Below are positions 945 through 56,171 of a DNA stretch of 64,000 nucleotides, one piece after another. The translations under genes were made by a program, and so were the position numbers. The stretch is from Minisyncoccota bacterium (GTDB lineage: Bacteria > Patescibacteriota > Minisyncoccia > JAHIHE01 > JAGLIN01). The notes under the pieces were generated by a model. It saw only the letters and a list, made by a program, of their open reading frames with translations, was not told the origin of the DNA and did no database searches. The stretch spans positions 79,191 to 143,190 of the forward strand of contig JBAZUT010000003.1 in assembly GCA_041661265.1 (NCBI GenBank), given 5' to 3'. Position 1 is the stretch's first letter, and each line of letters starts with the position of its first letter.

Positions 945-2406
<1,462 letters not shown>

Positions 2407-2686
2407 CTAGGGAGAAGTGCGATTAATTTCGCAACTTACCTTGGTCTTCTAACTCTACGAGTTATATAAGCTGTTGGGAATGTCTCAGCTTCGAACAAAA
2501 GATGTTCCATGGACAACTACATAAGGTTTGTAACTTATATCTGAATAGCAAAGTCGCATCTAATCTCTTGCATTGGATGCGATTTTTGTTACGCGGCACT
2601 TGTAATATTATTATTTCTTTGATAAGATATTATAAGTTTCGATAAATTAAAAAACTTCTAAAATCAACAAGTAATTTGTAAACTTT

Positions 2687-2760
2687 GGGCGATTAGCTCA
2701 GTTGGCTAGAGCACTTCACTGATAATGAAGAGGTCGGAAGTTCGAGTCTTCCATCGCCCA
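2687..2760 (+). tRNA. tRNA-Ile (anticodon GAT)
   Basis: GGGCGATTAGCTCAGTTGG...GGTTCGAGTC...ATCGCCCA cloverleaf. Anticodon loop CTGATAA. CCA is not encoded. Sits in the 16S-23S spacer. Confidence 0.9.
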
Positions 2761-2931
2761 CAACAAAAACTTATAACTGATGACTTATAACGCATAACAA
2801 TAAAGAAATATTAAATTCGAGAATCCTTGCATTGTTTTATATTTATTGTATAATACAAATGTAGACGAAACTTTGAGGCGACTTGCGAGCCCGTTGCGAT
2901 GTGTTATGAGTTATAAGTTGTGAGTTGTTTT

Positions 2932-3004
2932 GGGCCCGTAGCTCAGTTGGTAGAGCACTTGCTTTGCAAGCATGGGGTCGCAGGTTCGAATCCTGTCGGG
3001 TCCA
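2932..3004 (+). tRNA. tRNA-Ala (anticodon TGC)
   Basis: GGGCCCGTAGCTCAGTTGGTAGAGC...CAGGTTCGAATCCTG...CGGGTCCA. G3:U70 identity pair present. Anticodon loop TTTGCAA. CCA is not encoded. Confidence 0.9.
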
Positions 3005-3165
3005 CTTTGAGTTCACGTGAGAGGTTGAGGCAATATAAAATGACAGATTGCTGCTATCAATATATTCCGATGATTTATTGAAGATGCGAGCAATATATAT
3101 ACTTTTGAAAATCAAACACAAATATAAATATTTTAAAATATAAAAAAAGAAAGGGGGTGGAGTAA

Positions 3166-3555
3166 ATGGAATTTTTATTCGCCAGTGATTATTTTTTTAT
3201 CATTTTCAACCAAATGGTAACATTCTATCAGAATATACTATCTGGTGGGATCGATAGAGCGTTAATCGTATTGGGCGTAGGAGCTTTTATTGTTTTCGAA
3301 ATTGATAAAGTTGCCCTACGAACAAAGATAAAGGAACGCAGAGTTGTTGCGATGACCGCAAAATGGGTGTTCATGATCATTACGATATTAATCGCCCTGG
3401 AAGAAGCGCATATCGGTAATAACACCATTCAGACTTTTTCAAGCGGTTTTGCGCTTATGATTGCTCTTTCAGGCGGCTTGGCTTTCGGACTCGGTGGACA
3501 GTATCAGGCTAAAGAAATACTTGAGGAATTTAAACACAAGATCATACAGAAGTAG
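3166..3555 (+). CDS. small membrane protein encoded inside the rRNA operon spacer (2-3 predicted TM helices)
   Basis: 129-aa ORF with a strong SD (AAAGGGGGTGG) about 8 nt upstream of the ATG. Hydrophobic helices (ALIVLGVGAFIVF, WVFMIITILIALEE, FALMIALSGGLAFGLGG). Followed by a rho-independent terminator. Confidence 0.5.
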   Translation: MEFLFASDYFFIIFNQMVTFYQNILSGGIDRALIVLGVGAFIVFEIDKVALRTKIKERRVVAMTAKWVFMIITILIALEEAHIGNNTIQTFSSGFALMIALSGGLAFGLGGQYQAKEILEEFKHKIIQK

Positions 3556-3587
3556 GATCATATATTGCAACTAGCTAGTGGCAAAAA

Positions 3588-3616
3588 TAGACAGACTTTC
3601 AGTCTGTTTTTGTCAT
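3588..3616 (+). terminator. rho-independent terminator (7-bp stem ACAGACT/AGTCTGT, loop TTC, then T-run)
   Basis: Perfect hairpin at 3591-3607 followed by TTTTGTCATTTT and preceded by an A-run. Could act in both directions. Confidence 0.55.
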
Positions 3617-3650
3617 TTTATCAGGTAATTTAGAAATTACCGACAGGCTC

Positions 3651-3679
3651 TTGACAACATTATTCATACTTGCTAATAT
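3651..3679 (+). promoter_or_regulatory. putative internal promoter upstream of 23S (TTGACA, 17 nt spacer, TAATAT)
   Basis: Consensus -35/-10 with a 17-nt spacer between the spacer-gene terminator and the 23S 5' end. Confidence 0.4.
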
Positions 3680-3835
3680 TACTCTTGTCGCTGTTTAAAA
3701 GGAAATATATTGACAACAGAAATTTGACTGAAGATTTCAGCCAAAATTGTGTTGTTAATGATTGTACGTTAACAATTGATTTAATTTGTGATTCAATGAT
3801 TAGCAATTAATAATTGCTAGTTAACCGTTTATTAG

Positions 3836-7040
<3,205 letters not shown>

Positions 7041-14440: not shown

Positions 14441-17400
14441 TCAGACTACAATATTGATCAACCTACCCTTGATGAATAAAAACTTTTTTATCTCTTTCCC
14501 TTCTACCCATTTTCTGACTTTGTCGCTGGCAAGCGCAAGTTTTTTTGCTTCATCTTCAGAAATCCCTGCAGGCGCGGAAAGCTTTTCCCTGACTTTGCCG
14601 TTTATCTGGACCACGAGTTCAATTTCTGTTTCTCTTGCAGTAGATTCATCGTATTTCGGCCATTTTTCAAGATGAATACTGTCTGTACCGCCTAGGTTCA
14701 ACCACATTTCTTCCGTGATATGCGGAACAAACGGTGCGAGCATTGTTATGATAGTTGAAAATTCATTCCGGGGTATAGAGCTCAGCCTATCGTATTCATT
14801 CGAAAGGATCATGATCTGGGAAATTGCGGTATTGAACTTCATATTATCAACGTCTTCAGTAACCTTTTTTATCGCCCTATGAAGCACCGGCAACATATCA
14901 GCTTTTGATTTGTTATGCTCTGAATCCAAAAATGCAATTAATTTTGAAACGGCTTTTTTCCTATGATCGTATTTATACTTTTCAACATTCGGCATTTCAC
15001 CGAATGTTTTCGACTCTGCTTCGGGGATGAATATCGGATCATATCCGAAACCGCCATTTCCCTTTGCCATTTGCGAAACAAAACCCTTGCAAACACCGTC
15101 AAATTGCCTGAATGTGTCGTTCTTCGGATCATACATCGTAATGACAGATTTGAAATATGCTGATCGGTCATTCTTGTCGGACAATTCGCCAATTATCTGT
15201 CCTTGCGCTTGTTTATAATCACCCTTGGCAAATCTCGCCGAAAATACGCCGGGCTTTCCATCCATCGCGGCAACACTGAAGCCACTGTCATCAGCAACCG
15301 TTATATAGCCGGTTTTTTTCGCATAGTATTTTGCCTTTATCAGTGAATTATCTTCATATGTCTTGCCGTTCTCTACGGGCTCTTTGTATTTCTTTTTCAG
15401 ATCGGCAATGCATATGATATTAAAATCCTTAAAATGATCTTTTAATTCTGATAACTTGCCCTGATTGTTGGTTGCGACCAATATCGTATTTTTGACAGGT
15501 TTTGAAAACGCTATGTCTGCGTTTTGCACCTTGAATTGGAGATTCCAGATCCTTTCCAAAAACCTGTGCATTCCTATGAGACTTGTAGTTGACCAGGGAA
15601 TGGATTCGCCATACGGCCCCATGAACATCTCATATAACCTAATCGTATCGGCGCCATATTTTTCAATAACATCATCCGGATTAACGACATTTCCGCGCGA
15701 TTTGCTCATTTTTTGACCATCTTCCGCCAGGATCATCCCGTGCGATCTTCTTGTCTTATACGGCTCGCTCGTATTCACATATCCGAGATCGAACAAAAAC
15801 TTGTGCCAGAATCTGGAATACAGAAGATGAAGAGTTGTATGTTCCATTCCGCCGTTATACAGATCAACGGGCATCCAGTAATCTATTTTTTTTCTTGAGG
15901 CAAACTGCTTATCATTCCGCGGATCAAGATATCGAAGGAAATACCAGCTTGACCCTGCCCAGTTTGGCATAGTGTCGGTTTCTCTTCTGGCATCGTTCTT
16001 GCAAACGGGACACTTTATACTCACCCACTTTGTGATATTGGCAAGAGGGGATTCGCCTGTATCCGTTGGCTCATAATTCTTCACATTAGGCAATTCGAGC
16101 GGAAGGTCGGACTCATTCAGTGGAATATTCTTCGTAATATTAAGAACTTGGAATTCCCATCCAACGAGACCGTTGTTCTTTATTCTGCCAATATAATCAT
16201 TCGTAAAACCATATGACTTTTCAAGGTCATTGATGCTTTTTATTTTTGCACCCGGAAGAATCCTGGAAATGAGGTCTTTGTTCGAATATAATTCACCAAG
16301 ACCGCCAAAATTATATACCTTTTTTATCCTGACAACTTCAAAATCACCGGTATTCTTATTATTAAATTTGAGAATGTCGCCAGCCTTTATGTCTCCGAAA
16401 TATCTTTCTTTTTCATCAGGATTCAATGCTCTGGTTTCGATCGTCTTTTTTTTGCCGATGATCTGATTCCAAACATTGTTATCTCTGAAATTGAGTTCCA
16501 TTTTGACATTTATTCCCGCAAGTCCGCAATGTTTGCATTTTATGATCGGGATCGGCTCTCCCCAATAATGCTGGCGGGAGAACACCCAATCGCGAAGCTT
16601 GTAATTTACTTTTTTTTGCCCGATGCTTTTTTCTTCCAGCGATTTAATCATCTCGTTACGTGCTTGTTCCGATCTTAGGTTACTATATTTTTCCGAATTT
16701 ACTAACTGGCCATCATCACAATACGATTTTTCACCCTTCAGAAAGGCATCTCTTTCCTTTTGTATAGCTATTTCGGGAGATTCTGATCCCGACACAACAA
16801 TCGTTAAAGCCGCAGGTACAACGACTACTTTTATCGGCAACGCATATTTCTTTGCAAACACAAAATCTCTTTCATCGTGAGCTGGAACTGCCATTACGGC
16901 GCCGGTTCCATATGCCCCCAGGACATAATCGGCCACCCAGACCGGGATTTCTTCATTATTGAATGGATTTATTACTTTAAGACCTTTAATCTCTACGCCT
17001 GTTTTTTCTTTCGCCAAATCAGTCCTATCCAGATCAGGTTTATTTTTCGCCTCGTTAATATATTTCAAAACCTCATCGTAATTGTTTATTTGCGTTTTTA
17101 AAGTTTCTATAAGCGGATGCTCGGGAGCAAGAACAACGTAAGTACAACCAAAAATGGTATCGATACGGGTCGTAAACACTTCGACATTGTTTGCAACACG
17201 CCCCTCGCCCCTCTCAAGAGGGGAATATTGAATTCTAGCATTATCTTTTAACTTTTCACTTTTCACTTTAAACTTTACAGTTGCGCCTTCCGATTTTCCT
17301 ATCCAATTGATCTGCTGCGTTTTGATCTTGTCCAAATAATCCACGCTGTTCAGGTCGTCTATAAGACGCTGGGCATATTTTGTTATGCGGAGCATCCATT

Positions 17401-18067
17401 GCCTTTTCGTTCTTTTTTCAGCGACTGCGCCGCATCTTTCACAGCTTCCATCCATAACCTCTTCATTAGCCAAGCCAATCTTGCAGCTTGGGCACCAATT
17501 TATCGCCATTTCAGCTTCATAGGCCAGTCTTCTTGAATCTATGTACTCTTTTTTCCCGAGAGCATCCAGGCCGGCGGGAACATCAAGCTCCTCGATCGGA
17601 CGAGCCTTGTCTGATCTTTCATCATAAAAACTGTTGAAAAGCTTCAAAAAGATCCATTGTGTCCATTTATAATATTTCGGATCTGTCGTATTGATCTCTC
17701 TCGACCAGTCAAAGCTTGGCCCATAGCTCTTTATTTGCTTGGTAAAAGTTTTTATGTTCTTTTTCGTTACTATGGTCGGGTGAGTCTTTGTCTTAATGGC
17801 AAAATTCTCGGTCGGCAAACCAAAAGCGTCCCATCCGATCGGATAGATCACATTGTATCCGCTCATTCTTTTTTTTCGCGCGACGATATCGATCGCAATA
17901 TGGCTCCGCAGATGTCCGACATGGAGCCCTGCGCCCGACGGATAGGGGAATTCTATCAGACAATAATACTTCGGATCATTTGAGAAATCTTTGGCCTTGT
18001 ACAGTTCGCTCTTGTCCCATTTGGTCTGCCACTTTTTTTCTATCTTCCTGAAGTTATATTTTGACAT
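14441..18067 (-). CDS. leuS: leucine--tRNA ligase with an inserted RdgB/Ham1-type ITPase domain and an ASCH-like insert
   Basis: 1208 aa. HIGH (PYPSGAGLHVGHLRSH), editing motif TTRIDTIFGCTYVVLAPEHP, KMSKS (QKMSKSRGN), anticodon-binding AIKKVTEDVDNMKFNTAISQIMIL. About 192 aa inserted between core and anticodon-binding domain carry full Ham1 motifs: ILVATNNQGKLSEL, ADDSGFSVAAMDGKPGVFSARF, GGFGYDPIFIP, YDHRKKAVSKL. A further about 105-aa insert (GKKKTIETR...) is ASCH/PUA-like. Confidence 0.85.
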   Translation of the reverse strand: MSKYNFRKIEKKWQTKWDKSELYKAKDFSNDPKYYCLIEFPYPSGAGLHVGHLRSHIAIDIVARKKRMSGYNVIYPIGWDAFGLPTENFAIKTKTHPTIVTKKNIKTFTKQIKSYGPSFDWSREINTTDPKYYKWTQWIFLKLFNSFYDERSDKARPIEELDVPAGLDALGKKEYIDSRRLAYEAEMAINWCPSCKIGLANEEVMDGSCERCGAVAEKRTKRQWMLRITKYAQRLIDDLNSVDYLDKIKTQQINWIGKSEGATVKFKVKSEKLKDNARIQYSPLERGEGRVANNVEVFTTRIDTIFGCTYVVLAPEHPLIETLKTQINNYDEVLKYINEAKNKPDLDRTDLAKEKTGVEIKGLKVINPFNNEEIPVWVADYVLGAYGTGAVMAVPAHDERDFVFAKKYALPIKVVVVPAALTIVVSGSESPEIAIQKERDAFLKGEKSYCDDGQLVNSEKYSNLRSEQARNEMIKSLEEKSIGQKKVNYKLRDWVFSRQHYWGEPIPIIKCKHCGLAGINVKMELNFRDNNVWNQIIGKKKTIETRALNPDEKERYFGDIKAGDILKFNNKNTGDFEVVRIKKVYNFGGLGELYSNKDLISRILPGAKIKSINDLEKSYGFTNDYIGRIKNNGLVGWEFQVLNITKNIPLNESDLPLELPNVKNYEPTDTGESPLANITKWVSIKCPVCKNDARRETDTMPNWAGSSWYFLRYLDPRNDKQFASRKKIDYWMPVDLYNGGMEHTTLHLLYSRFWHKFLFDLGYVNTSEPYKTRRSHGMILAEDGQKMSKSRGNVVNPDDVIEKYGADTIRLYEMFMGPYGESIPWSTTSLIGMHRFLERIWNLQFKVQNADIAFSKPVKNTILVATNNQGKLSELKDHFKDFNIICIADLKKKYKEPVENGKTYEDNSLIKAKYYAKKTGYITVADDSGFSVAAMDGKPGVFSARFAKGDYKQAQGQIIGELSDKNDRSAYFKSVITMYDPKNDTFRQFDGVCKGFVSQMAKGNGGFGYDPIFIPEAESKTFGEMPNVEKYKYDHRKKAVSKLIAFLDSEHNKSKADMLPVLHRAIKKVTEDVDNMKFNTAISQIMILSNEYDRLSSIPRNEFSTIITMLAPFVPHITEEMWLNLGGTDSIHLEKWPKYDESTARETEIELVVQINGKVREKLSAPAGISEDEAKKLALASDKVRKWVEGKEIKKFLFIKGRLINIVV

Positions 18068-43930: not shown

Positions 43931-44027
43931 ATGTCACGAAAAACAAAGCACTTCAAATATGCTTTGTTTTTTATTGAATTTAGGTTATAATTTAAAATAT
44001 ATGAGAGGCTGCCTGATAAGTTCATAC

Positions 44028-45590
44028 ATGAATATAAATATACTAAAAAAACTGAAACAATGGAGAGATGAGACTGCAAAGAAAGAAGGCGTTGAAAATT
44101 ACCGCGTGATCCCCAACAGCGCCATCGAGGAAATTGCAAGGTTGCTGCCAAGGTCCAAAGAAGAGCTCACCAACATAAAAGGCATCAAGGATAAAAAGTT
44201 CTATAAATACGGCCGCGACATATTCGACATAATCGGAGATTCAAAAGACGGACTCGGTAATTCAAGGGACGCTTCCGGAAATATATTCTCAAAATTCCTA
44301 TCCGATAATTCAGTTTCCGCAGATCGTTCGACAACTGATCAGGAAAAAATATATTCCGTAAGCAATTATCTTGATTTTCTGAACGAAAAACTTTTCATGT
44401 CGGGACGCATCAGGATCAGAGGAGAGATTACGAGCGTCGATATCAGAGAAAAGGTTGTCTACTTCAGCTTGAAGGACGCAAAAGACGAAAGCGTTATAAA
44501 CTGCCTAATATTCAAGTATAACTACAAGATTTCCGGAATATCACTTGAGCCCGGAGCTGAGGTTGTTATCACCTCGATCCCGGAGATATATAAACCTATG
44601 GGAAGACTGAGCCTGAAAACCAGTCTTATCGAAATAGCAGGCGAGGGGACTCTCAAAAGATCGTATGACGAATTGAAAGCAAAATTGGAAAAAGAAGGAT
44701 TTTTTGCGCCGGAACGCAAGAAACCGATCCCGAAACTTCCTGAAACGATAGGCCTTATAACCTCGAACCAGGGCGCCGCGATCGGTGATTTCATGACGAA
44801 TATCGGAAATTACGGATTTAAAATAAAATTCATAAATACCAGCGTTGAGGGCAAGCAGGCGATCTTTGATCTTCTTAATGCGATCAGAACTGCACGAAAA
44901 ATGGACAACATCGACGTTCTGGCGATCGTCAGAGGCGGAGGAAGCCTGGAGAGCCTTCAGGCATTTAACAATGAAGTTCTTGTCAGGGAATTGCTCACGT
45001 TGGATGTGCCGGTCGTGTGCGGAGTGGGCCATGAAAAAGACATTTCGCTCGTTTCTCTGGCTTCGGATGTTTCAGTTTCGACGCCGACTGCAGCGGCATT
45101 TGCAATACGCGAATCGTGGGATGATGCAATGCGGGAATTCGAATATGCAAAAGATACGATCATGAACTCCTATGGCAAAATACTGTTTGAGAATAAATAT
45201 AATTTTGAGAATAATATACGATATGGGATCCGAGGCGGACTGGATAAGATAGTTGTCACATTCATGGGAATAATATCCGCCATAAGGTCATGCGAACAAA
45301 AAATATCTTCTGCGATCTCGCTGAAGAAGGAACGCATGGATTCTCTCGGAAAAGACATCATCAACGAATATGAAAAGGTCTTGCGACGCTCGGATGAGAT
45401 GATCAGGGCAGCGGAATCTGCTGTCGCTTCAAATGACCCGAAGCGCCAGCTCCGTCTCGGCTATAGCATTTCCTATGCGGGCGGAAAGATCTTGCGCAGC
45501 GTTAAAGATGTTTCAAAAAATGACATCATAAGAACCAGACTATCCGACGGAACAATTGACTCGACAATCAAAGATATAACGGATGATTAA
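44028..45590 (+). CDS. xseA: exodeoxyribonuclease VII large subunit with N-terminal HRDC domain
   Basis: N-terminal ILKKLKQWRDETAKKEGVENYRVIPNSAIEEIARLLPRSKEELTNIKGIKDKKFYKYGRDIFDII is an HRDC fold. It is followed by the XseA OB fold and catalytic core (GLITSNQGAAIGDF, VRGGGSLESLQAFN). Track ORF opens at 43959; ATG at 44028 lies downstream of a TATAAT. Confidence 0.75.
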   Translation: MNINILKKLKQWRDETAKKEGVENYRVIPNSAIEEIARLLPRSKEELTNIKGIKDKKFYKYGRDIFDIIGDSKDGLGNSRDASGNIFSKFLSDNSVSADRSTTDQEKIYSVSNYLDFLNEKLFMSGRIRIRGEITSVDIREKVVYFSLKDAKDESVINCLIFKYNYKISGISLEPGAEVVITSIPEIYKPMGRLSLKTSLIEIAGEGTLKRSYDELKAKLEKEGFFAPERKKPIPKLPETIGLITSNQGAAIGDFMTNIGNYGFKIKFINTSVEGKQAIFDLLNAIRTARKMDNIDVLAIVRGGGSLESLQAFNNEVLVRELLTLDVPVVCGVGHEKDISLVSLASDVSVSTPTAAAFAIRESWDDAMREFEYAKDTIMNSYGKILFENKYNFENNIRYGIRGGLDKIVVTFMGIISAIRSCEQKISSAISLKKERMDSLGKDIINEYEKVLRRSDEMIRAAESAVASNDPKRQLRLGYSISYAGGKILRSVKDVSKNDIIRTRLSDGTIDSTIKDITDD

Positions 45591-54668: not shown

Positions 54669-56171
54669 ATGAGCGATTTAGGCAATAGCAAGTGGCCGTT
54701 ATACAAAGACACAATGCTTATTTTTGGCAATCCCAAAAGCCAGGTTGGCATCTGCACGCTATGGACAAAAAAAGAGCTCGTTGCCGAAAAATTGGATCAA
54801 AATAAGTTTGCCGTCATGGGCAATCTTTATTCGCCGAGAAAAGGGATCAGTTTTTTATTTCGCAATCTGCTCGCAAATCCCAATATACGCCACCTGATCA
54901 TTTTGGGCCTCGACAATTCCAAAAGCGGCCAAGCGCTAGCTGATTTTTTTGATGGCGGATTTGAGAGATTCGAAGATGAGAAAACCAATACCATATATTG
55001 GAAAATAAGGAGCGGAGTCGATAACCGGATAGATTACGAAATCGACAAAGCCGCGCTGGATCTGCTGAGAGTAAATATTAATTTTATCGACTTGAGAAAA
55101 GAAAACGATCTTTCAAAAGTGCAAAGCATCATCAACAATTTAAAACAAGACCTCGAGTCTTACGCCTCAAAGCCGCTTCTTTTTCCGGATCCCGAGAAAA
55201 GCGATATAAATATGTATCCCTCCGAGCCAGCTGTCCATGTCGTTCGAGGCGCAAAAATTTCCGAAGTATGGGTTAAGATCCTTGATGAAATAATCAGATT
55301 CGGAGTAACTGACAAAACCTCATATCAAAACCGGCAGAAAGAGATCCTGGACCTTACGTCGATCATAACCGACGAGGATCCGGAAAATTTGCAAATTCCC
55401 GAATGGCTCCCGAATGACCGCGATCATCTCAGGAACTATCTGCCGACGATCCTGACCGCAAAATGCCCGGCTGGAGCTTCTTATACATATGGATCCAGAA
55501 TGCGCAGCTATTTCGGAGTTGACCAGGTCCAAAAGGCTGTGGATGAGCTCCTTCATGAAAAATACACCAGAAGGGCCGTGATCAATCTTTTGGATCCGAG
55601 AGTGGACTGCAACAGCAAAAATCCTCCTTGCCTGAACCATTGCTGGTTCCGAATTCAGAATGACAAAATATATCTTGTAGCAACGATCAGAAGCAATGAT
55701 ATGTTCGAAGCGTGGCCGGAAAATGCATTCGGCCTGCGCATGCTTCAATTTTTGGTGTACAAGTCCATTCTTGCCAAATATCCCGAAGTAAAGCTTGGGG
55801 ATCTCGTCATCCATTCCCAATCCGCTCATATATACGATGACTCTTGGGATGAAGCGAAGAATATCATCCAGAACCATTATATTGAAACAGTCAAGCATCC
55901 AAGGAATGAAATAGATCCAAGGGGGAATTTTCTCATTAAAACCGATGACGACGAGATCATTGTCGAACATTATTCGCATGACGAGCTTCTTCTTTCATCG
56001 TATAAGGGAAAAAATGCCATGTTGATCTATCTGAGGATATCCAGAGACAGAGCCATCTCCAATATCAATCATGCTATTTACCTCGGAACAGAGCTTCAGA
56101 AGGCTGAGGAATCGATAAGATTGCGGATTCAATATGAACAAGATAAAGACCTGAAGTATAAACGAAAATAA
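54669..56171 (+). CDS. thyA: thymidylate synthase (ThyA-type, divergent/archaeal-like) fused to an about 190-aa N-terminal MtrA-like domain
   Basis: C-terminal half: PPCLNHCWFRIQNDKIYLVATIRSNDMF...FGLRMLQFLVYKSI...LGDLVIHSQSAHIYDD matches the ThyA catalytic Cys / RSxD / aHiY pattern. N-terminal VGICTLWT...LANPNIRHLIILG resembles the NPNIRFLILCG block of MtrA-like proteins (from memory). Confidence 0.6.
   Translation: MSDLGNSKWPLYKDTMLIFGNPKSQVGICTLWTKKELVAEKLDQNKFAVMGNLYSPRKGISFLFRNLLANPNIRHLIILGLDNSKSGQALADFFDGGFERFEDEKTNTIYWKIRSGVDNRIDYEIDKAALDLLRVNINFIDLRKENDLSKVQSIINNLKQDLESYASKPLLFPDPEKSDINMYPSEPAVHVVRGAKISEVWVKILDEIIRFGVTDKTSYQNRQKEILDLTSIITDEDPENLQIPEWLPNDRDHLRNYLPTILTAKCPAGASYTYGSRMRSYFGVDQVQKAVDELLHEKYTRRAVINLLDPRVDCNSKNPPCLNHCWFRIQNDKIYLVATIRSNDMFEAWPENAFGLRMLQFLVYKSILAKYPEVKLGDLVIHSQSAHIYDDSWDEAKNIIQNHYIETVKHPRNEIDPRGNFLIKTDDDEIIVEHYSHDELLLSSYKGKNAMLIYLRISRDRAISNINHAIYLGTELQKAEESIRLRIQYEQDKDLKYKRK

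Follow-up and report, generated by a model that had tools for sequence, protein, structure and literature searches.

A Ham1/RdgB domain nested within the leucyl-tRNA synthetase of a Minisyncoccota bacterium, and a mosaic of nested modules in its relatives

A 64,000-nucleotide (nt) stretch of a Minisyncoccota bacterium genome (contig JBAZUT010000003.1 of assembly GCA_041661265.1; hereafter the window) carries at positions 14441..18067 (-) a bacterial-type leucyl-tRNA synthetase (LeuRS) gene, leuS, whose product of 1208 amino acids (aa) contains two nested modules. An earlier account made from the letters alone (the sequence-only reading) had proposed that a Ham1/RdgB non-canonical purine NTP pyrophosphatase domain is inserted in-frame within the synthetase, between its catalytic core and its anticodon-binding domain, and that a single protein of 1208 aa without stops results. 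A full-length domain recognized by both PF01725 and TIGR00042 does lie at that place, and the open reading frame 14441-18067 (-) is uninterrupted in translation table 11, with 0 stops or frameshifts. The Ham1, KMSKS and LeuRS motifs listed in that account are all found where it put them, and the interval that it gave for the domain, 14915-15490, corresponds exactly to aa 860-1051. All features of the gene described below lie on the minus strand.

The host portion of the protein has the features of a complete bacterial LeuRS. The TIGR00396 (leuS_bact) profile scores 933.7 bits against a cutoff of 548.4 in an NCBIfam profile search, with the match split into four stretches, and Pfam domains follow one another along the protein in the order editing domain, class I catalytic core, Ham1p_like and Anticodon_1, the tRNA-synt_1 match ending at aa 824 and Anticodon_1 beginning at aa 1058. 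The HIGH motif (HVGH, aa 49-52, 17912..17923) is followed by the CP1 editing domain (aa 254-477, 16637..17308; PF13603, E=1e-56), in which the editing-site motifs TTRIDT (aa 299-304) and GTGAVMAVPAHDERD (aa 387-401) are intact, by KMSKS (aa 786-790, 15698..15712) and, directly before the insertion loop in the alignment, by the host helix RFLERIWNL (aa 835-843, 15539..15565). The anticodon-binding domain (Anticodon_1, PF08264; aa 1058-1169, 14561..14896) contains LHRAIKKVTEDV at aa 1062-1073 and precedes a C-terminal domain. With a score above the equivalog cutoff, HIGH and KMSKS, a CP1 domain holding the T-rich and GTG..D motifs, and both the anticodon-binding and C-terminal domains, the protein belongs to the bacterial LeuRS family. 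A TatD-(x)-leuS neighborhood is common to genes with and without inserts, indicating that these genes are orthologous housekeeping leuS. NCBI, JGI and ENA all contain the identical protein (P0001), which in ENA lies on contig ERZ27249449; it is recorded on two contigs, the longest of which is 208 kb.

The nested Ham1/RdgB (inosine triphosphatase, ITPase) module occupies 14912..15487 (aa 861-1052). PF01725 (Ham1p_like) matches aa 862-1045 with E=2.1e-51 (174.9 bits against a threshold of 22.5), covering profile positions 1-185 of 186, and TIGR00042 (RdgB/HAM1) scores 162.6 bits against its cutoff of 145.35; the profile match that the sequence-only reading had named as a check is thus borne out. 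In phmmer comparisons the module aligns end to end with RdgB/Ham1 proteins of solved structure, namely 4bnq (E=3e-35), 1vp2, 3tqu, 6wwd and E. coli RdgB (1k7k/2pyu). The signature motifs lie at aa 861-871 (TILVATNNQGK), 925-929 (ADDSG), 1006-1011 (GFGYDP) and 1033-1039 (YDHRKKA), and across 34 embedded copies the active-site motifs (nN.gKl.E, eP.E.g.tf..NSL.KA, ADDsGl, PGv.ssR, gFGydpiF and dHR..A) are invariant or nearly so. The single departure from the canonical motifs is the replacement of SHR by DHR throughout the clade of embedded copies at this site. No second copy of Ham1 was found within the 64-kb window.

The predicted structure agrees with these assignments. An AlphaFold2 model of aa 651-1208, built from a 109-sequence alignment, has a mean predicted local distance difference test score (pLDDT) of 86 and a predicted template-modeling score of 0.72; its Ham1 portion reaches pLDDT 92-98 and, in Foldseek, overlays 1vp2 (TM 0.92), 4bnq (0.91) and the E. 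coli RdgB-ITP complex 2q16 (0.85) with root mean square deviations of 1.7-2.3 A, while the non-Ham1 remainder matches the LeuRS structures 4ari, 4aq7 and 2bte. The linker between the host helix and the first Ham1 strand (ADIAFSKPVK, aa 851-860, 15488..15517, delimited by alignment) has pLDDT values below 50 at aa 852-858 and is probably flexible, judging from the model. On the other side, alignment and model place a short linker (aa 1053-1057, 14897..14911) between the C-terminal helix of Ham1 and the first helix of Anticodon_1, with about three non-helical residues separating helix 1035-1054 from helix 1058-1074. Selection on the module was measured against the L002 orthologue (78% identity in the module), a comparison in which synonymous sites are saturated: the ratio of nonsynonymous to synonymous substitution rates (dN/dS) is 0.057 and the corresponding ratio of proportions (pN/pS) 0.17, whereas the editing domain gives 0.145 and 0.32; on these measures Ham1 equals or falls below both the editing and the anticodon-binding domain.

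To locate the insertion, LeuRS orthologues were aligned from KMSKS to the C terminus. In orthologues lacking Ham1, a variable loop some 15-25 residues long connects the RFLERIWNLQxK helix with the LLHKTIKKVTEDI helix, and Ham1-bearing LeuRS have about 190 additional residues in this same loop. The comparison of the flanks suggested in the sequence-only reading therefore yields a clean loop indel, and its suggestion to look in related candidate phyla radiation (CPR) genomes is answered by the same architecture in 34 further clusters at 90% identity, from different assemblies.

That account made no mention of a second nested module (ins1; aa ~520-650), which sits between the two halves of the zinc knuckle, CKHC (aa 511-514) and CPVC (aa 686-689). 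This segment of about 124-130 aa (aa 527-650, 16118..16489) was recognized as an ASCH/PUA-like fold through a structure match. Searched alone against Pfam it gave no significant match, the ASCH hidden Markov model (HMM) included. Its AlphaFold2 model (pLDDT 88) retrieves in Foldseek 2z0t (E=1e-8), 1s04, 1xne, 3s9x ('ASCH domain'), 3iuw and 1t62, followed by YTH domains. The module is conserved in about 40 relatives, has a dN/dS of 0.08, and contains a KTIETR motif whose K and R are invariant. A PUA-like beta-barrel together with a GxKxxExR-like motif places it in the ASCH superfamily, and since the Pfam ASCH HMM does not match it, the model-based assignment is to a divergent member. One relative, P0037, is labeled 'leucyl-tRNA synthetase/ASC-1-like (ASCH) protein' in JGI. 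ASCH proteins have been described as erasers of tRNA N4-acetylcytidine (ac4C), the archaeal members needing an appended tRNA-binding domain (preprint 10.64898/2026.02.27.708502); by analogy with this report, a tRNA-directed role for the LeuRS module is conceivable.

We then asked how widely such modules occur among the 120 closest LeuRS clusters at 90% identity, all from Paceibacterota/Patescibacteria metagenome-assembled genomes. Ham1 is present at the same LeuRS site in 35 of the 120, and 81 carry at least one nested module, while 39 carry none. In a MAFFT alignment of the 120 sequences, insertions of at least 60 aa are confined to five discrete sites, which in the numbering of the window protein are site A (~aa 271) at the entry to CP1, sites B and B' (~aa 418 and ~457) inside the editing domain, site C (~aa 515) between the CxxC pairs, and site D (~aa 850), the Ham1 loop. 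By Pfam, the modules comprise NUDIX, Ser_hydrolase/alpha-beta hydrolase, PDDEXK_3, nucleotidyltransferase (NTP_transf_5 / Aminoglyc_resit), ASCH and Ham1 domains. Serine hydrolases are found at sites A, B, B' and C, nucleotidyltransferases at A and B, and Ham1 at site D, with a degenerate form at site A; NUDIX and Ham1 occur together in 16 of the 120 clusters, and one relative (P0065, 1524 aa) has four modules. The site-A Ham1-like modules (P0053, aa 243-398; P0065, aa 250-432; P0088, aa 246-420) match Pfam with E~1e-8, lie before the editing domain, and lack the ADDSG, FGYDP and HR motifs; to judge from these sequences, they probably stem from a separate, earlier nesting event and have no activity. 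Within the window, the MetRS and a class II synthetase are undecorated.

To reconstruct the history of the domain, neighbor-joining (NJ) trees were built from modest alignments, with 790 columns for the LeuRS core. In the core tree, LeuRS with Ham1 at site D form one large clade in which 12 Ham1-less members are nested, and this clade has three subclades: one with serine hydrolase, ASCH and Ham1, one with ASCH and Ham1 that includes the window protein, and one with NUDIX, in some cases ASCH, and Ham1. The tree of the Ham1 modules recovers the same three subclades and is broadly congruent with that of the core, a pattern that favors one ancient insertion followed by vertical descent and several precise losses. 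Free Patescibacterial Ham1 proteins of 191-198 aa (P0121-P0133; 52-61% identical) fall within the embedded radiation. With 100 bootstrap replicates, embedded and free copies group together in 94, embedded copies alone are monophyletic in 0, and the NUDIX subclade joins the free copies in 98. The free rdgB genes lie in a conserved LemA - peptidase M48 - Ham1 operon (L005 7797-8378, L135 1830-2408, L136 3277-3852). The tree placement may mean that the nested domain was copied back out into a free gene (fission), that free and nested copies exchanged sequence, or that NJ has produced an artefact. On a broader scale, a representative library of 1.84 billion sequences contains 7658 Ham1 clusters at E<=1e-10; among the best 150 of these, the single long host is a LeuRS representative (P0010), and the rest are free or fused end to end (Ham1-NUDIX, Rce1-Ham1, Ham1-choline kinase, Ham1-aldose epimerase and tandem Ham1), indicating that the nested architecture is rare and lineage-restricted as far as these sequences go. 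A word-index search with Ham1 alone listed none of the embedded LeuRS proteins and was left out of the counts. A comparison of nested Ham1 with free rdgB, made through protein accessions, through the assembly accessions of Ham1-less LeuRS and by looking for the LemA-M48 locus in the window and the other loci, yielded no overlap from which a complementary distribution of the two could be read.

In some relatives the Ham1 site is associated with a palindromic repeat. Identical direct repeats of a perfect palindrome, GTAGAGACGCGATTTATCGCGTCT (peptide VETRFIAS), stand on both sides of the module in P0024 (L003 8512-8541 and 9112-9141) and in P0028 (L128, two copies in gene 1097-4693), and in the Ham1-less P0044 the empty site contains the same palindrome once (L004 8183-8202). 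Copies in P0045 and P0039 have been eroded by synonymous and non-synonymous changes and look like relics rather than selected structures. If the two direct repeats recombined, Ham1 would be excised exactly and one copy would stay behind. This is the state of the subclade of P0044, P0045, P0039 and P0043, for which such recombination is a plausible mechanism of loss. The 20-mer of the palindrome is found at 120 or more places, where we estimate that about one would be expected by chance. Among the matches listed, its hosts include cyanobacteria, Bacteroidota, Omnitrophota, Methylobacter, Planctomycetes and several Patescibacteria, and GTAG nearly always precedes it; the widespread element is a palindrome of 24 nt. 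It also occurs inside open reading frames of other Patescibacteria in either orientation (read as ETRFIAS or DAINRVS).

The window gene does not contain this palindrome, even when three mismatches are allowed, and its flanking repeats are short matches at chance level only; its module lacks the repeat boundaries expected of a mobile cassette. Nor do the nearest relatives of the gene have such repeats, and no hairpins were found at the flanks of NUDIX (L003, L128), ASCH (window) or PDDEXK_3 (L129) or beside the free rdgB of P0133 (L005, L007). We therefore rejected hairpins as a general signature of the cassettes and retain the palindrome as a lineage-specific feature of the Ham1 site. The possibility of a mobile domain, raised in the sequence-only reading, gains partial and indirect support: modules have been gained and lost precisely, and repeats bracket Ham1 in some relatives, but the window gene itself has none.

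Other observations concern mobile or palindromic sequences at these loci. A Y1 transposase gene (PF01797, IS200/RAYT-like; L135 4036-4758 (-)), separated by about 1.6 kb from the free rdgB that encodes P0131, is a candidate mobilizer of palindromic repeats in these genomes. A GC-rich palindrome, CCCCTCTCAAGAGGGG, is present at 17208-17223 of the window (LeuRS aa ~281-287, SPLERGEG), within a lineage-specific editing-domain loop insertion of about 20 residues; it looks like the relic of a small in-frame palindromic element, and a similar peptide, SPLERGQG, is present in P0005. In the leuS of P0044, a 62-nt perfect palindrome with a 30-bp stem lies in-frame in an editing-domain loop (L004 6802-6863).

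Taken together, we consider it probable, if well short of certain, that the window gene encodes a single bifunctional LeuRS/ITPase, and probably a trifunctional protein, in which an autonomous, active Ham1 domain is borne by an insertion-tolerant carrier. The domain sits in a variable surface loop at the entrance of the anticodon-binding helical bundle and would fold on its own, tethered by a flexible linker on its N side and a short helix junction on its C side. It keeps every residue class that RdgB and ITPA use for Mg2+ and purine NTP binding, and it is predicted to hydrolyze (d)ITP and XTP to the monophosphate and pyrophosphate; most likely, the nested Ham1 would be the cell's house-cleaning ITPase. 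LeuRS would serve as a constitutively expressed carrier, the two activities would be independent of one another, and co-expression and genome economy could provide the rationale for their union. We envisage a single insertion in an ancestor of a Paceibacteria clade, probably from a local Patescibacterial rdgB lineage, after which Ham1 would have been inherited largely vertically under purifying selection, with several precise losses. The other nested enzymes in LeuRS and the end-to-end Ham1-NUDIX fusions show that house-cleaning enzymes tolerate fusion and recur in it, and the mosaic in which several unrelated enzymes are nested argues, from sequence comparison, for a permissive carrier rather than a mechanism specific to ITPase and LeuRS. 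Some points weigh against this reading. RdgB/ITPA enzymes are homodimers, an arrangement to be reconciled with nesting. The site-D clade has changed SHR to DHR, although free Patescibacterial rdgB genes share DHR and the change is thus probably benign. Finally, nesting in an internal loop is far less probable than end-to-end fusion, so mere co-expression fails to explain why it has recurred at five sites of a single protein.

In a rival reading the modules would be functionally coupled to their host, making LeuRS a quality-control hub for substrates that pass through it, whether tRNA-Leu, ApnA and similar by-products, or the nucleotides bound for adenylation; in a variant, Ham1 would sense ITP or XTP and modulate leucylation. 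In its favor, Ham1-type modules have entered LeuRS at two sites (canonical at D, degenerate at A), the same few kinds of enzyme directed at nucleotides or RNA turn up at more than one site, NUDIX and Ham1 coincide in the 16 clusters mentioned above and also as end-to-end fusions, and the ac4C-erasing ASCH proteins need a tRNA-binding partner domain (10.64898/2026.02.27.708502). Nevertheless, the modules occur in mosaic combinations, and the 39 close relatives without any indicate that LeuRS can function without each of them. The linker before Ham1 is predicted to be disordered, the MetRS and class II synthetase of the window are undecorated, and we know of no Ham1 enzyme that acts on tRNA or aminoacyl-adenylates. 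We regard such coupling as unlikely, and the proposal in the sequence-only reading that dITP/XTP house-cleaning is physically coupled to translation loses ground for the same reason, as this LeuRS lineage nests several unrelated enzymes in mosaic combinations. A broader version, in which the Paceibacteria LeuRS is a modular platform whose cassettes are exchanged among five loops and between nested and free states, with palindromes aiding loss and perhaps gain, and in which a nucleotide and tRNA quality-control hub is tied to leucylation, draws on the position of free rdgB within the embedded clade (98% NJ bootstrap) and is similarly doubtful.

The modules might instead owe their presence to a neutral or selfish ratchet, in which a DNA-level process (palindrome-associated recombination, or allelic recombination between leuS variants) placed them in permissive loops of an essential gene, where they would be kept because an inexact deletion would kill the cell and not because nesting brings an advantage. 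Close relatives that differ precisely in having or lacking a module at a fixed site are what such a process would leave, as are the direct GTAGAGACGCGATTTATCGCGTCT copies around Ham1 in P0024 and P0028, the single copy at the empty site of P0044, the dispersal of the 20-mer across phyla and into Patescibacterial open reading frames, and other small palindromes in LeuRS loops. The window gene and its nearest relatives are without such repeats, however, the NUDIX, ASCH and PDDEXK_3 modules are not flanked by them, and strong purifying selection on the Ham1 catalytic residues implies that the module is used and not just tolerated; we judge the ratchet quite improbable. That the Ham1 fold is kept as a pseudo-enzyme, a structural, dimerization or RNA-binding appendage without ITPase activity, is in our view very improbable: decay does occur in this scaffold, as the site-A modules of P0053, P0065 and P0088 illustrate, and SHR has become DHR at site D, but the remaining catalytic motifs are kept by 34 copies at site D, and the free Patescibacterial rdgB genes have DHR too. 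Nothing beyond the unusual length of the protein speaks for an artefact (mis-assembly or an unrecognized frameshift joining two genes) or for a protein-splicing element, and we give these almost no credence. Mis-assembly and frameshift were rejected on finding LeuRS in-frame on both sides, the same protein on two contigs and the junctions shared by 34 further clusters. An intein, which the sequence-only reading had entertained while noticing no splice motifs, was rejected as well: the insert is taken up entirely by Ham1, whose profile has 186 positions, linkers of at most 10 residues leave no room for a Hint domain, no Hint or intein family is matched, and the junctions (KPVKN/TILV and LDSEH/NKSK) do not show the Cys/Ser at the insert N-terminus and the His-Asn plus Cys/Ser/Thr at the C-junction that an intein would have.

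A full-text literature search brought up no account of a LeuRS with nested Ham1, NUDIX, ASCH or hydrolase domains, and this LeuRS lineage as a carrier of several nested enzymes is to that extent undescribed; the sequences are public but misnamed, and domain accretion by synthetases and domain insertion in general are already known. NCBI names P0001 (MFA6096607.1), P0004, P0015, P0018 and P0022, all of 1200-1350 aa, 'RdgB/HAM1 family non-canonical purine NTP pyrophosphatase', and some relatives are split into short 'class I tRNA ligase family protein' fragments. With LeuRS misnamed in this way, automated reconstructions may conclude that leuS is absent and may assign relatives a wrong content of rdgB, NUDIX or hydrolase genes. 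The proteins provide a natural case of complete, apparently active enzymes nested in an essential aminoacyl-tRNA synthetase, and of the tolerance of class I synthetases to insertion; the five permissive sites that they map could be useful for protein engineering. They may also represent an unusual route by which ultra-small CPR genomes economize or link genes, and nested and free Ham1 together with the repeat-bracketed copies form a tractable system for the study of domain gain, loss and fission.

Elsewhere in the window, two further genes have unusual architectures. One (54669-56171 (+), 500 aa) combines an MtrA-like N-terminus, a thymidylate-synthase segment and a pterin-binding DUF4346, and the other (43959-45590 (+), 543 aa) encodes an exonuclease VII large subunit with an N-terminal HRDC domain before the OB fold.

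In comparison with known systems, the host shares HIGH, KMSKS, CP1, the Zn-binding CxxC pairs, the anticodon-binding domain and the C-terminal domain with bacterial LeuRS (TIGR00396; E. coli 4AQ7/4ARI, T. thermophilus 2BTE). A bacterial LeuRS usually has some 800-880 aa, whereas the window protein has 1208 aa and its relatives up to 1524 aa; the difference is made up by unrelated enzyme domains, which are nested at as many as five sites. Likewise, the nested module has the full domain, the catalytic motifs and the predicted fold of RdgB/ITPA/Ham1 enzymes (2Q16 of E. coli, 4BNQ of S. aureus, and 1VP2, TM0159 of T. maritima); within this family the free Patescibacterial rdgB genes, at 52-61% identity, come nearest to it. 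Those enzymes are free-standing homodimers of about 200 aa or are fused end to end, whereas the nested Ham1 has no start codon of its own, lies inside another enzyme and has DHR in place of their SHR. The short dispersed palindromes that lie in-frame in permissive loops of genes recall Rickettsia palindromic elements and REP-REPIN sequences, from which the 24-nt element differs in being identical across several phyla and in its putative tie to domain nesting. An ITPase within a larger unrelated polypeptide has a parallel in the viral polyproteins of cassava brown streak virus (PMC6640186) and cassava Congo cheravirus (PMC12846526); the viral polyprotein is processed into separate products, whereas no processing sites are known or expected in LeuRS-Ham1. 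Lastly, essential synthetases have gained domains in other lineages, as in an IleRS with an N-acetyltransferase (NF040702) and the eukaryotic synthetases with GST, WHEP and EMAPII domains. Such additions are mostly terminal or related to translation, through editing or tRNA binding, whereas the Paceibacteria LeuRS nests complete house-cleaning enzymes internally and in mosaic combinations.

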